From the UHGV virus genome UHGV-0045956: DNA of 32,333 nt. One strand, written 5' to 3'. Below, piece by piece: positions 1,707 to 29,211 of the stretch (positions are counted from its first letter, which is position 1; every line of letters begins with the position of its first letter). The DNA comes from a virus. The position numbers and the translations under genes are program-made. Below the pieces are notes generated by a model. It was not told the origin of the DNA and did not search any database. It saw nothing but the letters and a program-made list of their open reading frames with translations.

Positions 1707-4154
1707 TTAGCCGTCATGCATCATGCTGGCACGGGCGCGCGCACGTTTATCCCGCTCGTATTTTTCGAGCGCATCCTGTAACTGGCGGTCAAGCTGTGTT
1801 CCCGGCGCAGTACCGCCCGTCAGGTTGATGTGATATTCGTTTTTACTCTGGTCCACATAAGAGCGACCAGCCGGTGCCGTGACCGGCTGATAAGCCTGAT
1901 AGCCTGCATAAGAGCTGGTCGCCGGAATATAACCACCGGTGCCATACGTGGCGGCATGAGTCCTTGCGGCGGTCTGGTCAAGTGTGTCTGACTCTTTGTT
2001 GATAACACCGAGTTTTTCCAGTACCCAGTCAATACCGCTGCGCAGTTTGTTGAACGCATTAAGCGGCAGCATCAGCGCGTCAGCCAGTGCCTGCCCGAAC
2101 ATGACGCCCGTGTCACGGCAACGGTTCAGGGTGTCCTGGGTGGCTTTGACCGGGGCAATCAGGTTTTTAAACCACTGCCACGCGGCCTGTAACTTTTCGC
2201 CCAGCCAGTCAAACACCGGTTTCAGTGGCGTGAACAGCTCCCCCACCGGCGCAAATGCCGCTTTCAGCCCTTCAACCACACCGCCAAAGAATGCGCTGAC
2301 AGGCTCCCAGTATTTACGGATAAGCAACGCCCCGGCGACAATGGCGGCCACCACAGCCACAACCGGCCAGCTAATCGCCCCGATGGCCGTCATAACGGCA
2401 CTACCAACCGTCGTGAAGATTGCCCCCATTGCGCCTGCTGCCGCGATGATGGCATTGATGCCGGTGATAACCGGCCAGGCTACAAGACCAATTGCACCGA
2501 TGATGCCAGTAAGCGCCAGCGCACCACCGGCAATGAGGCCAATGGTTGACGCCAGTGATTTGTTTTTCTGTATCCAGCCGTCGAGTTTTAACACATACTT
2601 TGTGGCCGTCTGCGTGAGCTTACGTAGCGCGCCTTCCTGCTGGTCAAACAGGTCAGTCCCCACCGCCTCATAAGCGGACTGAAACTCCTTAAAGTCACCG
2701 CCGAGGTTATCCTGCATGATTTTAACCAGCTCTTCCGTTTTACCGTCCGAGGCTTTCAGCGTGGCGGTCAGCTTATCCAGTTTTCCGCTTGCTGCCGCTG
2801 CCAGTAAAACGTTCGCTGATTTCAGGGCTTCCTCACCAAAAATGGTTTTAAGGTATTCCCCCTTCTGAGACGTTCCCAGCTTGTGTTTATCAAAGCTGGC
2901 CTGAATCTCTTTCAGAATGGTGAATAACGGACGCATATTTCCCTTTTTGTCCGAGGTTTTCACGCCAAGCTCTTTGAGTGCATCCCATGCTTTTCCAGTC
3001 GGTGCCTGTAATCGGGTGACAACGGCACTGCTACCCGTCCCCGCCATTGACCCCCTGATGTTATTGTCATGCAGCACACCTGTCATGGCTGCTGCCTGCT
3101 CAAGACTTACACCTGCCGTCCTCGCAACCGGCCCGAGGTAAGTCAGTGCATCACTGAGTCCCTGAAAATCAGCCGCCGACTTATTCATCGTTGCCGACAA
3201 CACGTCGCCCACATGGCTGACATCATCATTTGACAGTTGAAAGGATGCCTTAGTCCCCAGCAACAGTTGCGCGTTTTCTTCCATCGACCGCTGATTCGCC
3301 AGCGCCATATTCAGCGTGACCGGCGTTGCCGCCTGAATGGCATCAACATCCCCACCCGCTTTCGCGATGATTATCTGTGCACCGGCCGCATCATCCGCCG
3401 AGGCGGCGGTATTGTCGCCGAGCTGGCGCGCCTGTTTGCGTAGTGCGGTCATTTCGGCGGAGTCTTTTGCCACACCGAGCACGGCCTGCAATTCTGAGTT
3501 TTTCTGCGCAAACTCATAACCGGGCATCAGCAACTTAACTCCGGCCATCGTTCCCGTCGCCGCAATCCCCACACCGGCAGCGCCCACTGAGGCCATATTT
3601 CCGGCCAGCTCCTTTCCTGCCTGATAACGCTGTTTTACTGCGTTAAGTTTTGCCTGTTGCGCACTGACACGCGCCAGCGCGTCACGCTGCCGGTTAAGCT
3701 GTGCGGTGGTTTCACTGATACGGTTTTTCAGCCCCTGCTCATCATGTGCAAGATTGCGGGTATTAATTCCCACAGCGGCCAGTTCCCGCTGCTGGCGTTT
3801 AACGGAATCCGTCAGGCGGTTATATTTCGCCTGTAAGTCCTCCGCCGCACGCTTTGCGGATTCCAGCACTTTCGCCTGAGCACGGGTCGGACGTTCGGTG
3901 TTTTTAAACTGTGTGGCAAGGGCTTCGGCTTCCTGCCGAGCCTTTTCAAGTGCATGACCAGTCACGGCGAGCTGTGCACTGGTCTTGCGGAATCCCTCAA
4001 TACGGGATGCGTGACCGTTCAGCTCGCGCAGTGATTTTTGTGTTTCCCGGATATCCCCCGACAGCGATTTGCTCGCTGTACGGATGGATTTAAACGGGCG
4101 GGATGCCTGGTCAACAGCCCTGAGCAATACCTGTAATTTTACATTGTTACTCAT
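1707..4154 (-). CDS. T: tail tape measure protein gpT
   Basis: 815 aa; coiled-coil N-terminal part, Gly/Ala-rich hydrophobic middle; downstream of E/E' as in P2. Confidence 0.9.
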   Translation of the reverse strand: MSNNVKLQVLLRAVDQASRPFKSIRTASKSLSGDIRETQKSLRELNGHASRIEGFRKTSAQLAVTGHALEKARQEAEALATQFKNTERPTRAQAKVLESAKRAAEDLQAKYNRLTDSVKRQQRELAAVGINTRNLAHDEQGLKNRISETTAQLNRQRDALARVSAQQAKLNAVKQRYQAGKELAGNMASVGAAGVGIAATGTMAGVKLLMPGYEFAQKNSELQAVLGVAKDSAEMTALRKQARQLGDNTAASADDAAGAQIIIAKAGGDVDAIQAATPVTLNMALANQRSMEENAQLLLGTKASFQLSNDDVSHVGDVLSATMNKSAADFQGLSDALTYLGPVARTAGVSLEQAAAMTGVLHDNNIRGSMAGTGSSAVVTRLQAPTGKAWDALKELGVKTSDKKGNMRPLFTILKEIQASFDKHKLGTSQKGEYLKTIFGEEALKSANVLLAAAASGKLDKLTATLKASDGKTEELVKIMQDNLGGDFKEFQSAYEAVGTDLFDQQEGALRKLTQTATKYVLKLDGWIQKNKSLASTIGLIAGGALALTGIIGAIGLVAWPVITGINAIIAAAGAMGAIFTTVGSAVMTAIGAISWPVVAVVAAIVAGALLIRKYWEPVSAFFGGVVEGLKAAFAPVGELFTPLKPVFDWLGEKLQAAWQWFKNLIAPVKATQDTLNRCRDTGVMFGQALADALMLPLNAFNKLRSGIDWVLEKLGVINKESDTLDQTAARTHAATYGTGGYIPATSSYAGYQAYQPVTAPAGRSYVDQSKNEYHINLTGGTAPGTQLDRQLQDALEKYERDKRARARASMMHDG

Positions 4155-22666: not shown

Positions 22667-23668
22667 TTATAATAATTTGTCCAGCCTAGCTGAAACAATA
22701 CCTAGAACAACTGTTGAAACTATATTTATCACCACTCTTAAAATACTCTTCTTTCGCTTCTTACTATATTCATCATACAACCTCTCATCACCCTTATTTA
22801 ATACAATGTACGATGCTGGAGTATAACCATCAATTAATCTCTCTAGGCCTTCACCTAAATGCTCCGCTAACAATGGGATAATAGAAAACGCACCAAGAAA
22901 GAGCATTAAAAATTTTACTAACCTTTCTTTATCACCAATATCAATATATTCACCAACATTGTACAGTGCATAACTTAAAATCAATATAGAAAAAGAAAAC
23001 CGCATAATCAGTGGAATTAAATACGATATCCTTTGAGCTTGCTGTATCAATGGTATTTTGTTTGTAACTCTTTGACATCCTTCAACCCATTCTTTAAATG
23101 CTTCGATAAAACCTCTAGCCACTACATAATCAGCATATTCAACAACTATTTCTGCTGAACTGGTGAGCATGAATGCAACAAAACGCCCCCTAATGAAAGG
23201 TGGTGCATCTTCTTCCATTTCTTTCTGCATAGCAATTCTTGATGCTAATTTAACAGTAACTTCATAGTGGTTAGGTAATGATGCCCCTGTCGATAAAATT
23301 GCAAAGTTATATTTTAAAATTACACTAATTGTTGGACTACTTCCCGCACTACTCGACATTGCAAACTTATCAAAAGAGGTAAACTGTTCCTTTCTATCTT
23401 TTGAATGTAAAATAGTTACCGTTTCATTTTTCGATATAATATTATGAACATCACACAATTGATTTATTTTTTGATGAACGCTTCTTATCTCATCGATATT
23501 TATAAGTAAATTCTCAGAGGTTCTCTGCCTTATTGTTTCTGTTGTTCCCGTTATATGTTGATAAATTTGCTGATAAATACGAATGCTAGTATTAATATCC
23601 CGAGAAGCAGGTAACCCACTATTAACCCCATTATTTTTTTCATTTGACTCATCAATTATAATACTCAT
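22667..23668 (-). CDS. hypothetical membrane protein, AT-rich cargo between cos and Q
   Basis: 333-aa ORF; ~200-aa soluble N-terminal part then three predicted transmembrane helices; strongly AT-rich versus backbone. Confidence 0.7.
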   Translation of the reverse strand: MSIIIDESNEKNNGVNSGLPASRDINTSIRIYQQIYQHITGTTETIRQRTSENLLINIDEIRSVHQKINQLCDVHNIISKNETVTILHSKDRKEQFTSFDKFAMSSSAGSSPTISVILKYNFAILSTGASLPNHYEVTVKLASRIAMQKEMEEDAPPFIRGRFVAFMLTSSAEIVVEYADYVVARGFIEAFKEWVEGCQRVTNKIPLIQQAQRISYLIPLIMRFSFSILILSYALYNVGEYIDIGDKERLVKFLMLFLGAFSIIPLLAEHLGEGLERLIDGYTPASYIVLNKGDERLYDEYSKKRKKSILRVVINIVSTVVLGIVSARLDKLL

Positions 23669-23912
23669 TTTATTTCCTATAAAAACTTAACCAGCAAATT
23701 AAACAAAAAGAACACAAGGTTATTATTTAGCGTGCAACAACACGATTGCACAACCAAATGCCACGTGTACGAATCTAACCATTCTCTTATATTAAATCAA
23801 GTCAATACAACCTAATAGACACATTTTTTATCGCAGTTATACACTTGGTTAACAATATGCGGATAGTTACTCAAATCAAATTACATATATGACAAAATGA
23901 ACAATTGCGCGC

Positions 23913-23931
23913 AGTGCTTTCCCCGCCTCGC
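23913..23931 (-). other. cos: cos site, 19-nt cohesive end GGCGAGGCGGGGAAAGCAC
   Basis: + strand gtgctttccccgcctcgcc is the reverse complement of the P2 cohesive-end sequence as I recall it; GC-rich island between AT-rich genes. Confidence 0.7.
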
Positions 23932-24036
23932 CCGCCCGCTTCATGGGGCGGTTTTAATGTAGGTGCATGAACACTCCAAGAGCGCGCCAGCATTGACGAT
24001 AACTGACAATAAAAACGGCCTCTGACATATGCACAT

Positions 24037-24954
24037 TCATTCACAATCATGCATATTAAAGAACGGGTATGGATAGCGTCGTAAGATCTCATCTTCACTG
24101 TACCCCAAATAATCAGACATGAGTTTAATCGAAGGTGGCGTTACAGGTTTCATAAGCAGAGGAAAACGTTCGTGCAAATCATTGAATTTAAGAATCCCTG
24201 AATCTTCTTGCATTACTCTTTTGTCAAACAGCGATTCAGCATACAATGGCAACTCTTTGAGCAACAGATTAATATCAAGCAACAAAACATCTATCATAAT
24301 CATTATTTGCTCAGTAATATCAATGTAATAAGCCGCCTTATTACTACCTATAGCATTAACAATATCATCATTTTTAAAACGCATCGTCGGCAAAGGTGAA
24401 CCTGTTGATTCAATAATCATTCCTCTATAGGTGTCATCAAAATCATTCCTAACATTTAATGCAGCCAATAGGCTGTTAAACCTTCTTGCTATATCACTAA
24501 CAACAAAAGCATCCCCCCAGTTAGTAGTCTTTGCTGTCTCTCTATTATTCTCTACTCCCTTTTGACTCAATATACAGGCCAACTCACTTAAATCTGATGA
24601 TAGGGGAGCACCAGAAAAAACCACGACAGGAAAAGCTAAAGCCCTCTCGATAGGATTTTCACTTATACTTACCCCACCATAATAATTCCCTTTAATTTGC
24701 AACAACGTTGTCATTGCAGAAAAGTAGTCATAAATACATTTATTTACAACGCTTACCTTTCTTCTTTGTGCTTTAAGGTACTCCTGCCGATAAAACAACC
24801 TAGTTGCAATAAAGTAACTCAGCACAGAAGAGATAATTGGTAATACTACAGGCAGCACATAATCTTTTATGACATTAGTATTATTAACGCCTTTAATTGC
24901 ATCAATAATATCCTCAACCTGAAGCTGCCCTATTATATAGCTCGTATAATCCAT
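24037..24954 (-). CDS. hypothetical membrane-anchored protein, AT-rich cargo at the tin/old position
   Basis: 305-aa ORF; single N-terminal transmembrane helix (YVLPVVLPIISSVLSYFIATRLF); ATG 2 nt after the upstream lipoprotein stop. Confidence 0.7.
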   Translation of the reverse strand: MDYTSYIIGQLQVEDIIDAIKGVNNTNVIKDYVLPVVLPIISSVLSYFIATRLFYRQEYLKAQRRKVSVVNKCIYDYFSAMTTLLQIKGNYYGGVSISENPIERALAFPVVVFSGAPLSSDLSELACILSQKGVENNRETAKTTNWGDAFVVSDIARRFNSLLAALNVRNDFDDTYRGMIIESTGSPLPTMRFKNDDIVNAIGSNKAAYYIDITEQIMIMIDVLLLDINLLLKELPLYAESLFDKRVMQEDSGILKFNDLHERFPLLMKPVTPPSIKLMSDYLGYSEDEILRRYPYPFFNMHDCE

Positions 24955-24956
24955 TA

Positions 24957-25163
24957 TCAGAAAGCCGTTATTGTTCTATTACAACGTTCAGTAGCAACTT
25001 TCACAGCATCACGCCCATCACTTAATTTAGGGTAAGAACCAATCTCTATAAAATATTGGACACCTCTTTCAATACAACTCTCAACTTCTTTTTTATTACT
25101 CTCATTACAACCAACCAGCAACGCCCCAAAAAAAGCCATAACACAAATCAGTTTTCTTTTCAT
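24957..25163 (-). CDS. small lipoprotein (candidate superinfection-exclusion factor)
   Basis: ATG 25163 with AAGGTG ribosome-binding site; MKRKLICVMAFFGALLVGC signal peptide and lipobox; ~50-aa mature part with Cys residues; AT-rich. Confidence 0.6.
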   Translation of the reverse strand: MKRKLICVMAFFGALLVGCNESNKKEVESCIERGVQYFIEIGSYPKLSDGRDAVKVATERCNRTITAF

Positions 25164-25301
25164 TTTAAACACCTTAACAAACACGATACAAAAACGTATA
25201 TTTATATTATCTTTCAGAATAAGTAAATCCCAGCTATTCATCAACTCTCGGTGTCAATCTGATGGGTATCTAACGCCTCGCTAAGCTCGTTGTTCAACCC
25301 C

Positions 25302-25428
25302 NNNNNNNNNNNNNNNNNNNNNNNNNNNNNNNNNNNNNNNNNNNNNNNNNNNNNNNNNNNNNNNNNNNNNNNNNNNNNNNNNNNNNNNNNNNNNNNNNNN
25401 NNNNNNNNNNNNNNNNNNNNNNNNNNNN
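25302..25428. other. assembly gap (127 N) followed by ~31-nt poly-G
   Basis: N run, then gggggggggtgggggggggggggggggggggg at 25429..25460. Confidence 0.95.
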
Positions 25429-25464
25429 GGGGGGGGGTGGGGGGGGGGGGGGGGGGGGGGTTTA

Positions 25465-25710
25465 CTACGGCCTGCGTGGTGGTTGTTTTGGCATGTTAGC
25501 TGGCCGAGATGTCTCAATTTTCTGTCTACTGATATCGTTAAACCGTCTGTAATTATCCCGGACTATTTCGGCACACCCGACCAGCTCATCGGGCGTCAGA
25601 TTTTCGTTGACCATAATCCGCTGTAAACGCTGAACAATAGCCATCAGCTTGATATTTTTAGTTTTATGGTGCGGTATCTCGCCTGGTATTCTGTGCATTA
25701 TCCAAGCCAC
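25465..25710 (-). CDS. hypothetical protein (3' end next to gap and poly-G, boundary unreliable)
   Basis: 81-aa ORF downstream of the ASCH-like gene; C-terminus abuts the homopolymer and gap. Confidence 0.35.
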   Translation of the reverse strand: MAWIMHRIPGEIPHHKTKNIKLMAIVQRLQRIMVNENLTPDELVGCAEIVRDNYRRFNDISRQKIETSRPANMPKQPPRRP

Positions 25711-26153
25711 CCGTTTTGCTGTGCACGCTCCATCTGTTCATCTGAATAGTTCCATGCTCCATCCGTGGCAACCATTGCCCCGCCAGACATCCCCGTCTCT
25801 GGTTCATACATAACAGCAAGGCCGAGCTGATGCATAATTTCATGATTAATTCTGAATACCAGACCACGCTCACTAAGTTCTTTCCAGTTCACAATCTCAT
25901 ATGCGCCTGTATTAAGCAGCTCAATACTTAGCAAGACATAATCTTCCAGCCAGTCTGACAGGTCAGTAACATCTGTTATCCGGGCTTCAACCTTTCGCCC
26001 CGTATACACACCCTGCACCCATTCATGCAAAATCAACGTGTCCCCGCGCTCATAATTACGGTCATTTTTCCGAAACTCTGCGCGTTTCTTTCCTTCCAGC
26101 ACAAGGTCGAAATATTTTGCGTGCAGCTTTACCTCGTGAATTTTAGCCATCAT
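25698..26153 (-). CDS. ASCH/DUF3850-like protein with C-terminal HExxH motif
   Basis: MAKIHEVKLHAKYFDLVLEGKKRAEFRKNDRNYERGDTLILHEW resembles the ASCH-like DUF3850 N-terminus; HEIMH near C-terminus; ATGATGA overlap with the A stop. Confidence 0.6.
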   Translation of the reverse strand: MMAKIHEVKLHAKYFDLVLEGKKRAEFRKNDRNYERGDTLILHEWVQGVYTGRKVEARITDVTDLSDWLEDYVLLSIELLNTGAYEIVNWKELSERGLVFRINHEIMHQLGLAVMYEPETGMSGGAMVATDGAWNYSDEQMERAQQNGWLG

Positions 26154-28435
26154 GTCCACTCCATTACTGTTGAGAATCCCGGCCACTCATCAGCGACCGA
26201 ATACGTGAATTTTTTCCCGTCATAATTTACGGTTGCCCCACGCGCCAGCGCCTCAAGCTCCCATCGCTGCGGCCTGATACCATTCTGAGCAAGGTCAACG
26301 CGGATACGGGTAATTTGCATTCTTTCCGACCGGGTCAGTCTGGCCGATGGTGCAATTTCATGTGGTTTTAACGGGCTTCCGTTTCTTTGCTGACGGTTTG
26401 GCGTTCTCAGGTCGTGTTTTAATGCGCCCCTGAGCGCCCTCACGACCTCCGGGTCACTCCATTCGATAACACCGTCATTAACCAGATTAAGCACTGCTGC
26501 GGCGTGCTCAGAAGGTGTGGGAGCCGGTAACGAAGTATCACCACCGGTGAGTTTTCCACAGTTATTGACAGGACTCCGAGGCGCGGCGATGCCGCTTTTT
26601 AAAGTCAAAGGCTCAACGACCGGAACTTTCGGCACAATGCGCCAGTCCGTCGTTCTGGTGATATGAATATGACGCGCGCCGAGATGCGGCGCGTAAATGC
26701 CGACCACTCTCTCGACTTCTTCCTCGTACTCGTTAACTTCATCCGACGGGCTACGGGCGACTCTGACAGTCTGGCAATCGCGCGGAACATTTGCCCCACC
26801 CTGCGCACTGATATACAACGCAAAATCGCCACTGTCTGCGGCAGCGCGTGCAGCCTCGACGCGTTCGTCAAACTCATCAGCAATGCTGACGCCGCGAGGC
26901 AATTTGCGTAGTTCACGGTAAGCCCCCATTGTCGGCAGACCAACCGTTTTAAATTGCGGGATGCGCCACGTTGACGCCCATGCAGTAACAGCCGCGGCAG
27001 TATCTTTCAGAGGTCTGCCGGTATCGTTATCGAGCTGACCATCCAGTGCATAGCCGTCGATATTTTTTGAAATGTATTTCGCGATATACCCCGCAGCACC
27101 GCCCCGGTTAAGGTGTTTCGCCTGAAAACGGTTTCGCTCGGCTCCTCTTTCGTCGCCATCCTCTTTGAGCGCGTAGCGACGCATGGTTTCGATAATCTGG
27201 TTACGCTGACGTGGATTACAAAAAAGCATCATATGCCAGTGCGGCGTTCCGTCGTGGTGTGGCTCGACGACACGCAAACCGTAGACCTGTAAATCATTAT
27301 CCTTGAATGCCGTGCGCATCAGGCTCCAGATGCGGCAGAGATAACGCTGCGCATCCTTTGGATTAAATGCCTCATCGTTCCAGCCGTGATTTAGCTGGAC
27401 GGTTTTACTTTCGCCTTTTCCGACCTGACGTGTCGGGTGATACTTTGACGGCGCGGTCAGCGTGATAAACATCCCCACATCACCCTCTGCGGCGGCGTAA
27501 CGCTCAATACCGGCGATGGTGTTCATCAGCTCCATCCGGCGAATTTCTGGATTAGAAATACTGCCCATCACCTTACTGATAAGGTCGATGCGCTCGCCGG
27601 TTTCCCTGTTTTCAAGGTCACACGATTTAAGAAATTCCAGATTTGCCTGGCGGCGCGCACGCACATCACGAATGGCGTGTTTACTGGCATAAGGAGAACG
27701 GTCTTTATTGACCTCCCCGACAGCTATCAGTAACGCTTCATGCCAGCGCATACGCTGGCCTTTAAGCTGATGAGTCCACCACTCATCGTTAAACAGACGG
27801 GCAATGGCAGAATATGCCTGCCTCGTGGTCATCTGCCCTTTACGGTATTTTTTCCAGTAGAGAGGGGAAATATTGAAAGCACGTGCAGCGCCAGCAACAT
27901 GACCATAGAGGTGAGCCTGCGCCTCATCCGTAAACAGCGATTCTTTTTCGCCATGCGCATCCACCCAGGCATCGCTGAGTTCCTCATACATCATGAAAAG
28001 CTGCGATGAGATACGGGCAGCAAACTTTTTCAGCTCCTTGTCATTCATTCCCGGCAGGCGCGCATAGTGGTCACGCTCTGCCAGAAACAGCAACGACGCG
28101 TCGGTGTTCATTTCATGGCGCTGATTCACACGCTCAATGCGCGGCCATAAACGACGCTGAAAAGTGGATGTGAGGAAATAAAACCCGTGTACCGGGCTTT
28201 TATTGCGCCGGATGTAGTCATAGCGTGAAGTAAACAGCGAGCGCAAAAAGTAAGGCAGGCGGTTAATCGTGGATAAAACACCTTGCACCTGACGCATCTC
28301 GTCACGTGTAAGGGGTCTTTCGCGCCCGACGGCCTCGCGTGGCGCGTTCCATGCATAAGCACCGGTAAACGCCTTACCGGTGCCTGCAGCAAATGCTGAA
28401 GGAGGGACAAAACGCCCGGAGGCTTTAACGGCCAT
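26150..28435 (-). CDS. A: replication initiation endonuclease gpA
   Basis: Trimmed to ATG 28435 (MAVKASGRF…), 761 aa as in P2 A; contains the conserved …HHDGTPHWHMMLF… and …AGYIAKYISKNIDG… regions I associate with rolling-circle initiators. Confidence 0.88.
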   Translation of the reverse strand: MAVKASGRFVPPSAFAAGTGKAFTGAYAWNAPREAVGRERPLTRDEMRQVQGVLSTINRLPYFLRSLFTSRYDYIRRNKSPVHGFYFLTSTFQRRLWPRIERVNQRHEMNTDASLLFLAERDHYARLPGMNDKELKKFAARISSQLFMMYEELSDAWVDAHGEKESLFTDEAQAHLYGHVAGAARAFNISPLYWKKYRKGQMTTRQAYSAIARLFNDEWWTHQLKGQRMRWHEALLIAVGEVNKDRSPYASKHAIRDVRARRQANLEFLKSCDLENRETGERIDLISKVMGSISNPEIRRMELMNTIAGIERYAAAEGDVGMFITLTAPSKYHPTRQVGKGESKTVQLNHGWNDEAFNPKDAQRYLCRIWSLMRTAFKDNDLQVYGLRVVEPHHDGTPHWHMMLFCNPRQRNQIIETMRRYALKEDGDERGAERNRFQAKHLNRGGAAGYIAKYISKNIDGYALDGQLDNDTGRPLKDTAAAVTAWASTWRIPQFKTVGLPTMGAYRELRKLPRGVSIADEFDERVEAARAAADSGDFALYISAQGGANVPRDCQTVRVARSPSDEVNEYEEEVERVVGIYAPHLGARHIHITRTTDWRIVPKVPVVEPLTLKSGIAAPRSPVNNCGKLTGGDTSLPAPTPSEHAAAVLNLVNDGVIEWSDPEVVRALRGALKHDLRTPNRQQRNGSPLKPHEIAPSARLTRSERMQITRIRVDLAQNGIRPQRWELEALARGATVNYDGKKFTYSVADEWPGFSTVMEWT

Positions 28436-28700
28436 ATGAGCCAAAAGCCTCTGAACAACGCCTGCTGAGTTGCTCAACCTGCGCGTTTAAATCAGCAAAA
28501 GACTTTGCGCTTCCGGTCAGAATATCGTGATGCATCAGGCCGGAAACGAGCTGGCTTAATTTCGGATAATAACCAACCACCGCCAGCCATTCCTGACCGG
28601 CGTTTTTACCGCTTTCCGCTCTCTTTTTCTCGTGGAGAATAAACTGAAAGCTGTCACTGGTAACGACATAACGTTCGCCAATTTCAATACGAATACTCAT
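28425..28700 (-). CDS. hypothetical early protein (P2 orf83 position)
   Basis: 91-aa ORF immediately upstream of A. Confidence 0.5.
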   Translation of the reverse strand: MSIRIEIGERYVVTSDSFQFILHEKKRAESGKNAGQEWLAVVGYYPKLSQLVSGLMHHDILTGSAKSFADLNAQVEQLSRRCSEAFGSYGR

Positions 28701-28921
28701 GCCGTTCTCCGGTAATGTTTGTTTTTTGCTTCAAAGACTGACTGGCAGGAAACACAACGCGTGGCTGACGGATAAGCTGCACGACGGGCAGCAGGTATTG
28801 GCGCGTCACACTCTTCGCAAACCAGCGCAGAAGCACAGCAATGTTTTACCCTTTCCGCGTTAATCTGGCGCTCCAGTAATTCAGCCTGTTGTTCCTGAAT
28901 AAAATCTACGTTGTCCGGCAT
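28697..28921 (-). CDS. TraR/DksA-family C4 zinc-finger protein (P2 orf82 position)
   Basis: 74 aa with CxxC…CxxC (CEECDAPI…CVSCQ). Confidence 0.65.
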   Translation of the reverse strand: MPDNVDFIQEQQAELLERQINAERVKHCCASALVCEECDAPIPAARRAAYPSATRCVSCQSVFEAKNKHYRRTA

Positions 28922-29211
28922 TACCAGCTCCTTTTGTCGTTCAGTTTCTTAAATTCATCAGCGCAATAGCTGGCGATTTCTGTCGTTAATTTTGTCAGTT
29001 CATCCACGGATGAAATTTGCTTATGAAATACAGCGCGTTTAACAAGTAAATTGACCACATCAGACAGGAGATTTAATTTATCCGCATAAATGGCTATAGT
29101 TGATTCCACCATATCCCCAGTGTTTTTATCGCGTTTAATATCAGCTAGCGACAAATCACCATTTTTCATGACTGAAATCTTCAGCCAGTTATTAAGCAAT
29201 ATATTTTTCAT
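28921..29211 (-). CDS. hypothetical protein (AT-richer small ORF, possible moron)
   Basis: 96-aa ORF, stop/start coupled to neighbours; more AT-rich than surrounding early genes. Confidence 0.45.
   Translation of the reverse strand: MKNILLNNWLKISVMKNGDLSLADIKRDKNTGDMVESTIAIYADKLNLLSDVVNLLVKRAVFHKQISSVDELTKLTTEIASYCADEFKKLNDKRSW

Follow-up and report, generated by a model that had tools for sequence, protein, structure and literature searches.

An intact orf91 homologue of a P2-like prophage combines an ASCH domain with DUF7415, a portable domain with a clade-specific HEIMH motif

Introduction

What kind of protein is encoded directly after the replication initiator gene A of a P2-like prophage, and does a five-residue HEIMH string near its C-terminus mark a metal site? 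This question was raised by an ORF in UHGV virus genome UHGV-0045956, for which a reading made from the letters and ORF translations (hereafter, the sequence-only reading) had proposed an ASCH/DUF3850-like domain fused to a possible zincin-like tail. The whole stretch of DNA that was analysed, 32,333 nucleotides long and referred to as the window, corresponds to a nearly complete P2-like prophage, in which the tail, capsid, terminase and portal genes are followed by a cargo region of low GC content, the early operon and an integrase-sized ORF. The tail of the protein was found to correspond to the domain DUF7415, of which no mention was found in the literature searched, nor was any functional study of DUF3850 or orf91 in this context.

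Results

The ORF was found where the sequence-only reading had placed it, at 25698..26153 on the minus strand, encoding a protein of 151 aa (MMAKIHEV...NGWLG) from an ATG at 26153..26151 to a TAA stop at 25700..25698, the next in-frame ATG (26150..26148) being the start chosen by RefSeq. It follows gene A (26150..28435, minus strand; Phage_GPA, Pfam PF05840, 1.5e-123), the ends of which were taken from the RefSeq annotation of an identical prophage. The junction between both genes (26150..26162, minus strand), read directly from the sequence, comprises a GGAG at 26162..26159, a 5-nt spacer and an ATGA at 26153..26150, in which the TGA stop of gene A (26152..26150) overlaps the start of the ORF. 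Such an overlap is what translational coupling with A, as previously suggested, would look like. The coding capacity of 25698..26153 is real, since phrog_1812 spans the whole protein (E=8e-83), homologues at 48–57% identity retain both domains, and dN/dS against close relatives is below 1 (0.13–0.46, with fewer than 20 substitutions underlying these values). Separate PHROGs families also exist for each half. As a feature, this full-length orf91 homologue is already known, because it is 100% identical to a RefSeq entry of E. coli MS 16-3, 'DUF3850 domain-containing protein' (WP_001504897.1), and falls into Pfam and PHROG families that have already been catalogued, its function being unassigned. 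Searches with NCBIfam and PADLOC returned nothing meaningful for the 151-aa protein or its downstream neighbours.

At its 3′ side, the TAA of the ORF overlaps, as TAATG, the ATG of an orf92-like gene of 77 aa (25465..25698, minus strand; phrog_11386, 4.4e-40), which is annotated as a 234-nt CDS in the intact genome of E. coli MS 16-3, whose prophage is otherwise 100% identical. There, the orf92-like gene is the final cistron ahead of a GC-rich hairpin with an 18-bp stem lying directly 3′ of it (ACCCCGCCATCCCTGAAA-CTTGC-TTTCAGGGATGGCGGGGT), with AT-rich cargo beyond. This hairpin marks the point at which the conserved early operon gives way to variable cargo. Where the MS 16-3 prophage has the hairpin, the window (25303..25462) presents 126 N followed by ~40 G with a single T within, which looks like an assembly or masking artefact. 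On the other side of the ORF, an orf83-like DUF5405 gene is located just upstream of A (28425..28700, minus strand; Pfam DUF5405, 6.7e-13), and its orf81-like paralogue appears at 28921..29211 (minus strand), with a TraR/DksA-type zinc-finger gene between the two. The cargo (22667..25244, minus strand), situated in the P2 tin/old hotspot from the portal gene to orf92, has a G+C content of 31–43% compared to ~54% in its flanks. It contains ORFs for a 333-aa protein with a C-terminal part that reads by eye as hydrophobic, a 305-aa protein of the function-unknown family phrog_21267 (8e-150) and a small product with an N-terminus resembling, also by eye, that of lipoproteins (MKRKLICVMAFFGALLVGC...). 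PADLOC, NCBIfam and Pfam gave no assignment for this cargo, which might represent a so far uncharacterised cassette for lysogenic conversion or anti-phage defence.

Two domains are present here, rather than one domain and a tail. The assignment of the N-terminus to ASCH/DUF3850 by the sequence-only reading was borne out by Pfam, with DUF3850 matching aa 5–77 at 65.1 bits (cut-off 22.9) and ASCH scoring 43.0 bits (cut-off 21.2). This half forms a minimal, PUA-like beta-barrel (aa 5–79, 25917..26141, minus strand), and its translation contains the octapeptide GxKxxExR as G21-K-K23-R-A-E26-F-R28, a pattern reportedly given as the ASCH signature by Iyer, Burroughs and Aravind in 2006. Moreover, it matched PDB 3iuw (E=1.3e-13), a structural-genomics protein of no known function from Enterococcus faecalis (NP_814290.1, 'activating signal cointegrator'), which shares the minimal ASCH/DUF3850 domain with the window protein, but is single-domain and lacks DUF7415. 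Occurrence of the ASCH half without the C-terminal half was also found in T7-like, T1-like, Enterococcus, Listeria and mycobacterial phages, using tblastn on 50,697 phage records.

Another ASCH-family protein, the N4-acetylcytidine amidohydrolase YqfB of E. coli (PDB 9KYF), shares 11–14% identity with the window protein, and its catalytic residues are K21, T24 and E74 (PMC9599836). With the correspondence set by motif register rather than by residue-level structural alignment, K23 is equivalent to the Lys of YqfB, but the position of the Thr nucleophile is occupied by a Glu (E26). Furthermore, the barrel ends at about residue 79, without a segment equivalent to the one carrying E74. For these two reasons, the protein was not filed as a YqfB-type enzyme.

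To predict the structure, AF2 was used with an alignment of 131 sequences, and the single-sequence model (pLDDT 36) was discarded as unusable. The resulting model, with a mean pLDDT of 88 and values of 93–97 across most of the C-domain, places after the beta-barrel (5–79) a weaker linker, two helices (90–95 and 98–110), a beta hairpin (112–117 and 122–128) and a final helix (138–146). Its pTM of 0.53 suggests that the ASCH and DUF7415 domains may not be rigidly packed against each other.

As the sequence-only reading had described, the ASCH half is followed by ~70 aa that include HEIMH (H104–H108, 25844..25830, minus strand). These residues correspond to DUF7415 (aa 87–146, 25716..25895, minus strand), a predicted helix-helix-beta hairpin-helix domain matched by Pfam PF24187 over residues 87–129 (1.9e-14; 54.0 bits, cut-off 27). 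Word-indexed homologue searches gave close relatives only, and the family was revealed by an exhaustive HMMER search of residues 81–151 against 1.84 billion representative proteins, which yielded 195 homologues at E≤1e-3. Conservation was counted in an alignment of 128 non-redundant homologues, in which N103 and G111 were invariant among sequences otherwise 30–50% identical, H108 was His in all but one (127 of 128), and H108, S123, G97 and D131 were all conserved in at least 90%. E105 was kept in 105 out of 127 homologues (83%). The family motif reads I-N-x-E-[IV]-[LM]-H-P-x-G-L-A. The window protein presents N103, H108, G111, L112, A113, G121, S123 and D131, its sole departure from the family columns being Q109, a position with Pro in 122 of the 128 homologues.

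The HEIMH string is located at the C-terminal end of helix 98–110. Position 104 was His in only 16 of the 128 homologues, the others having mostly Arg (47), Lys (23), Thr (16) or Asn (11). Within 80 related viral loci, H104 appeared in 19 of the 20 members of the ASCH-fused clade, while outside this clade all of the 60 loci except 3 had R, K, N, A, T, Y, Q or S (the other clades adjoining gpA having A, T, Y, N or K, and the remaining loci mostly R). Together with the secondary structure, these column and per-clade counts point to HEIMH as a clade-specific spelling of the conserved DUF7415 motif and not a zincin site. The chance expectation of HExxH in a protein of this length and composition is ~0.017, and a second literal HExxH was present among the 17,251 residues of stop-free stretches in the window. 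No Cys and no His other than H104 and H108 occur in the DUF7415 domain of the window protein, and no third metal ligand for HEIMH was identified in it. No peptidase family matched the window protein in Pfam at E≤1, and the DUF7415 profile had 0 matches at E≤10 against all PDB sequences. No metalloprotease folds were retrieved in fold searches, the query of which was the whole two-domain model and the matches of which were dominated by the ASCH half; a distant structural relative of the C-domain may thus have been missed.

The sequence-only reading had also pointed to P2 orf91 for comparison, and the ORF is indeed its positional homologue, located after A with the same ATGA junction; identity to the P2 and Wphi products over residues 1–75 is 96–97%. 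In the P2 record (AF063097, L003, orf91 at 3317..3646), Orf91 (AAD03307.1) likewise comes immediately after A with an annotated 4-nt start/stop overlap. However, it is 109 aa long and, after aa 1–75 (96% identical), loses all similarity to the window protein. By local nucleotide alignment, codon 75 of P2 is followed by the first ~25 nt of an orf92-like gene and then by the tin/old cassette, the junction sequence being TGCACAGAATAC.AGG.GAGATA, which encodes HRI(L/P)GEI. Because the ASCH codons 1–75 run directly into the orf92-like start, P2 Orf91 is a deletion derivative that lacks precisely DUF7415. P2 is a viable laboratory phage, and DUF7415 would therefore be dispensable for growth on laboratory hosts.

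The proteins gp91 and gp92 of Wphi (L001, 3115..3630), also encoded immediately after A with a 4-nt start/stop overlap, correspond to one gene whose halves are parted by single-base indels and which is intact, with 151 aa, in the window. Four single-base insertions relative to the window were found in the Wphi record, possibly sequencing errors of a 2002-era entry. The intact two-domain form is the common one, appearing in P37, 12474III, P2SIAC10 and others. The region comprising this gene and orf92 was found in 393 (~7%) of the 5,426 complete E. coli genomes, with coverage of at least 80% in 344, so the fusion of ASCH to the tail, previously thought an unusual combination, turned out to be the standard form in P2-like phages. 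In chimeric E. coli ORFs (P0171, P0188 and P0174), the ASCH half was joined to pieces of a phage spike or of baseplate J, and DUF7415 to a piece of Cox; these were rejected as functional fusions, being probable deletion scars in decaying P2-like prophages.

The neighbourhood of DUF7415 was analysed in 80 IMG/VR loci chosen by similarity to the P2-type sequence of the window. Among these, a gpA homologue was present in 49 and was the direct neighbour in 44. Counted by arrangement, with the few non-adjacent cases included, gpA was followed by ASCH-DUF7415 in 20 loci and by DUF7415 with a different N-terminal extension in 10, while an extended DUF7415 protein lay immediately upstream of gpA in 17. 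In the sequences tested from this last class, the extension was DUF5405 (Orf83 family), the family of the orf83-like and orf81-like genes of the window. In particular, one locus (L039) had a DUF5405-DUF7415 fusion immediately upstream of gpA, and in another (L078) an ASCH gene and a DUF5405-DUF7415 gene were separate, side by side, ahead of gpA. Moreover, a metagenomic protein of 188 aa (P0024; L006, 2597..3163) consisted of an orf92-like N-terminus (E=9e-8 against the orf92-like protein of the window), a ClpX-type C4 zinc finger and DUF7415, its gene being preceded directly by a Toprim primase-like gene (858 aa) and followed by a Gp49/HigB-like gene. In two more loci, DUF7415 followed a protein of ~900 aa; one of these proteins was Toprim by name, and the Pfam tally gave two Toprim members. 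Across these loci, DUF7415 was fused to each type of small protein found beside gpA in the window (ASCH, Orf83-like DUF5405 and Orf92-like), which is classic, though indirect, evidence that these three work together.

Further fusions of DUF7415 involved a dATP/dGTP pyrophosphohydrolase, a Rv2179c-like DEDD exonuclease and a thymidylate kinase. Stand-alone versions were also found, as proteins of 62–77 aa and, by tblastn on the 50,697 records, as small ORFs in T5-like phages and in T4-like phages of Klebsiella and Salmonella. Because it occurs alone and in many architectures, DUF7415 is an independent mobile module. The stand-alone proteins (phrog_3954 and phrog_2502) are 40–50% identical to the domain in the window protein, including the motif I-N-x-E-I-L-H-P-L-G-L-A and the G-x-S...D-G-x-W-x-Y hairpin, but have neither ASCH nor a gpA neighbour, and mostly carry Arg or Lys at position 104. 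A stand-alone DUF7415 of 62–74 aa was located between the head-completion gene L and the tail gene X/holin of P2-like late operons in about 15 of the 80 loci. Such copies were found at ~3990..4200 in L036, L044, L048, L057, L061–L063, L069, L072, L076, L079 and L088, among others, with gene L on one side and X/holin/muramidase genes on the other, a moron-like position. In the T4-like Klebsiella phage vB_Kpn_K65_evo1, a 77-aa DUF7415 ORF (L007, 2977..3210) overlapped the end of nrdD and the start of nrdG, which encode the anaerobic ribonucleotide reductase and its activase, and in T5-like phages a 131-aa version was found near Sir2-like genes and an origin-binding protein. Since DUF7415 also appears without gpA, in late operons and in T4-like and T5-like phages, its adjacency to gpA could partly be inherited synteny. 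The common denominator of these contexts is DNA replication and nucleotide handling.

Discussion

The ORF following gene A is very probably the intact orthologue of P2 orf91 and not a zincin. Its wider reading as a non-essential two-domain accessory of the gpA replication cluster, docking mechanism included, is on balance favoured, while the docking by DUF7415, considered as a mechanism on its own, is tentative. In this reading, the ASCH barrel would bind nucleic acid or a nucleotide, possibly modified, rather than carry out a YqfB-type hydrolysis. DUF7415 would act as a portable docking or ligand-binding module, linking its fusion partner to a phage or host component of the machinery for DNA replication and nucleotide supply, and the overlapping translation with A would keep the amount of protein in step with the cis-acting nickase A.

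The proposal of a zincin-like metal site, which would make the protein a small metalloenzyme, started from a literal HExxH on a confidently predicted helix, and its retention in 19 of the 20 members of the ASCH-fused clade and the presence of E105 in 83% of the family are in its favour. However, it did not survive the comparison with the family: the first His is missing in 112 of the 128 homologues, and the second, the one that is conserved, lies at the end of the helix, where it is normally followed by Pro. The five-residue string is the only element in common with the zincin metallopeptidases, from which the window protein differs in having no conserved first His, no evident third ligand (neither Cys nor another His being available in its DUF7415) and no peptidase family or metalloprotease fold match. 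Moreover, known zincin catalytic domains are far larger than DUF7415, and P2 itself does without this domain. Overall, the evolutionary case against a zincin is strong and the structural case is incomplete, and a metalloenzyme of this kind is considered extremely improbable.

Two other explanations concern one half of the protein each. DUF7415 itself could be a small ligand-binding or catalytic domain, possibly oligomeric, acting on a nucleotide, a metal or a signalling molecule through a cluster of N103, E105, H108, S123 and D131, with the ASCH fusion coupling this activity to the recognition of nucleic acids or nucleotides. The conservation of these near-invariant polar residues, amid sequences of 30–50% identity that also keep G97 and the invariant G111, would be as compatible with a ligand or catalytic pocket as with a docking surface, if not more so. 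Furthermore, DUF7415 is repeatedly fused to or adjoins nucleotide enzymes (dATP/dGTP pyrophosphohydrolase, thymidylate kinase, exonuclease and NrdD/NrdG), and its stand-alone copies occupy moron-like late-operon positions, which are common for small phage accessory proteins. However, ~55 structured residues are very few for an enzyme, invariant G, P, N and S are often structural in a mini-domain, and the domain has no sequence match to a solved structure at E≤10 and no annotated family past a DUF. This explanation is regarded as unlikely. The ASCH half, for its part, could recognise modified DNA or RNA, the protein being a reader that acts with nearby methyltransferases in counter-defence or in the discrimination between self and host, not in replication; the sequence-only reading had suggested an RNA-modification reader, a possible role of this half. 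The fold matches include PUA-like readers of modified bases (YTH, EVE, THYN1 and the N-terminal domain of McrB), and binding of modified bases has been predicted for ASCH, which is also linked to N6-adenine methyltransferases (PMC4738411). In addition, Wphi, P37, 12474III and P2SIAC10 carry a cytosine methyltransferase gene immediately past orf92, and 5 of the 96 proteins scanned from DUF7415 loci were D12 N6-adenine methyltransferases. Nevertheless, the cargo region of the window has no methyltransferase, the methyltransferase belongs to the variable hotspot outside the conserved core, and DUF7415, not ASCH, is the part retained beside gpA. A base-modification reader that works apart from replication is judged quite improbable.

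Returning to the accessory of the gpA cluster, DUF7415 would be, in a broader and more speculative proposal, a portable module, so far not recognised as such, that partners both the rolling-circle initiators of the gpA type (HUH) and the enzymes of nucleotide supply in phages. The module might be a docking domain for a shared component of the replisome or of dNTP synthesis, or a ~55-residue nucleotide or metal pocket formed by the invariant N, E, H, S and D. The three alternative fusions of DUF7415 would then suggest that the gpA flankers Orf83/DUF5405, Orf91/ASCH and Orf92 form one complex with gpA.

The gene encodes a 'DUF3850 domain-containing protein' that is common in P2-like prophages and already catalogued, and very probably holds no hidden metalloenzyme. 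Modest novelty lies in the revised reading of P2 Orf91 and Wphi gp91/gp92, as well as in the link of DUF7415 to gpA and its flankers in several arrangements. The textbook P2 Orf91 is a truncated version of a two-domain protein, and these results offer a concrete way to approach experimentally the function of four small P2 early genes (orf81/83, orf91 and orf92), to which none has been assigned since the genome sequence was obtained.
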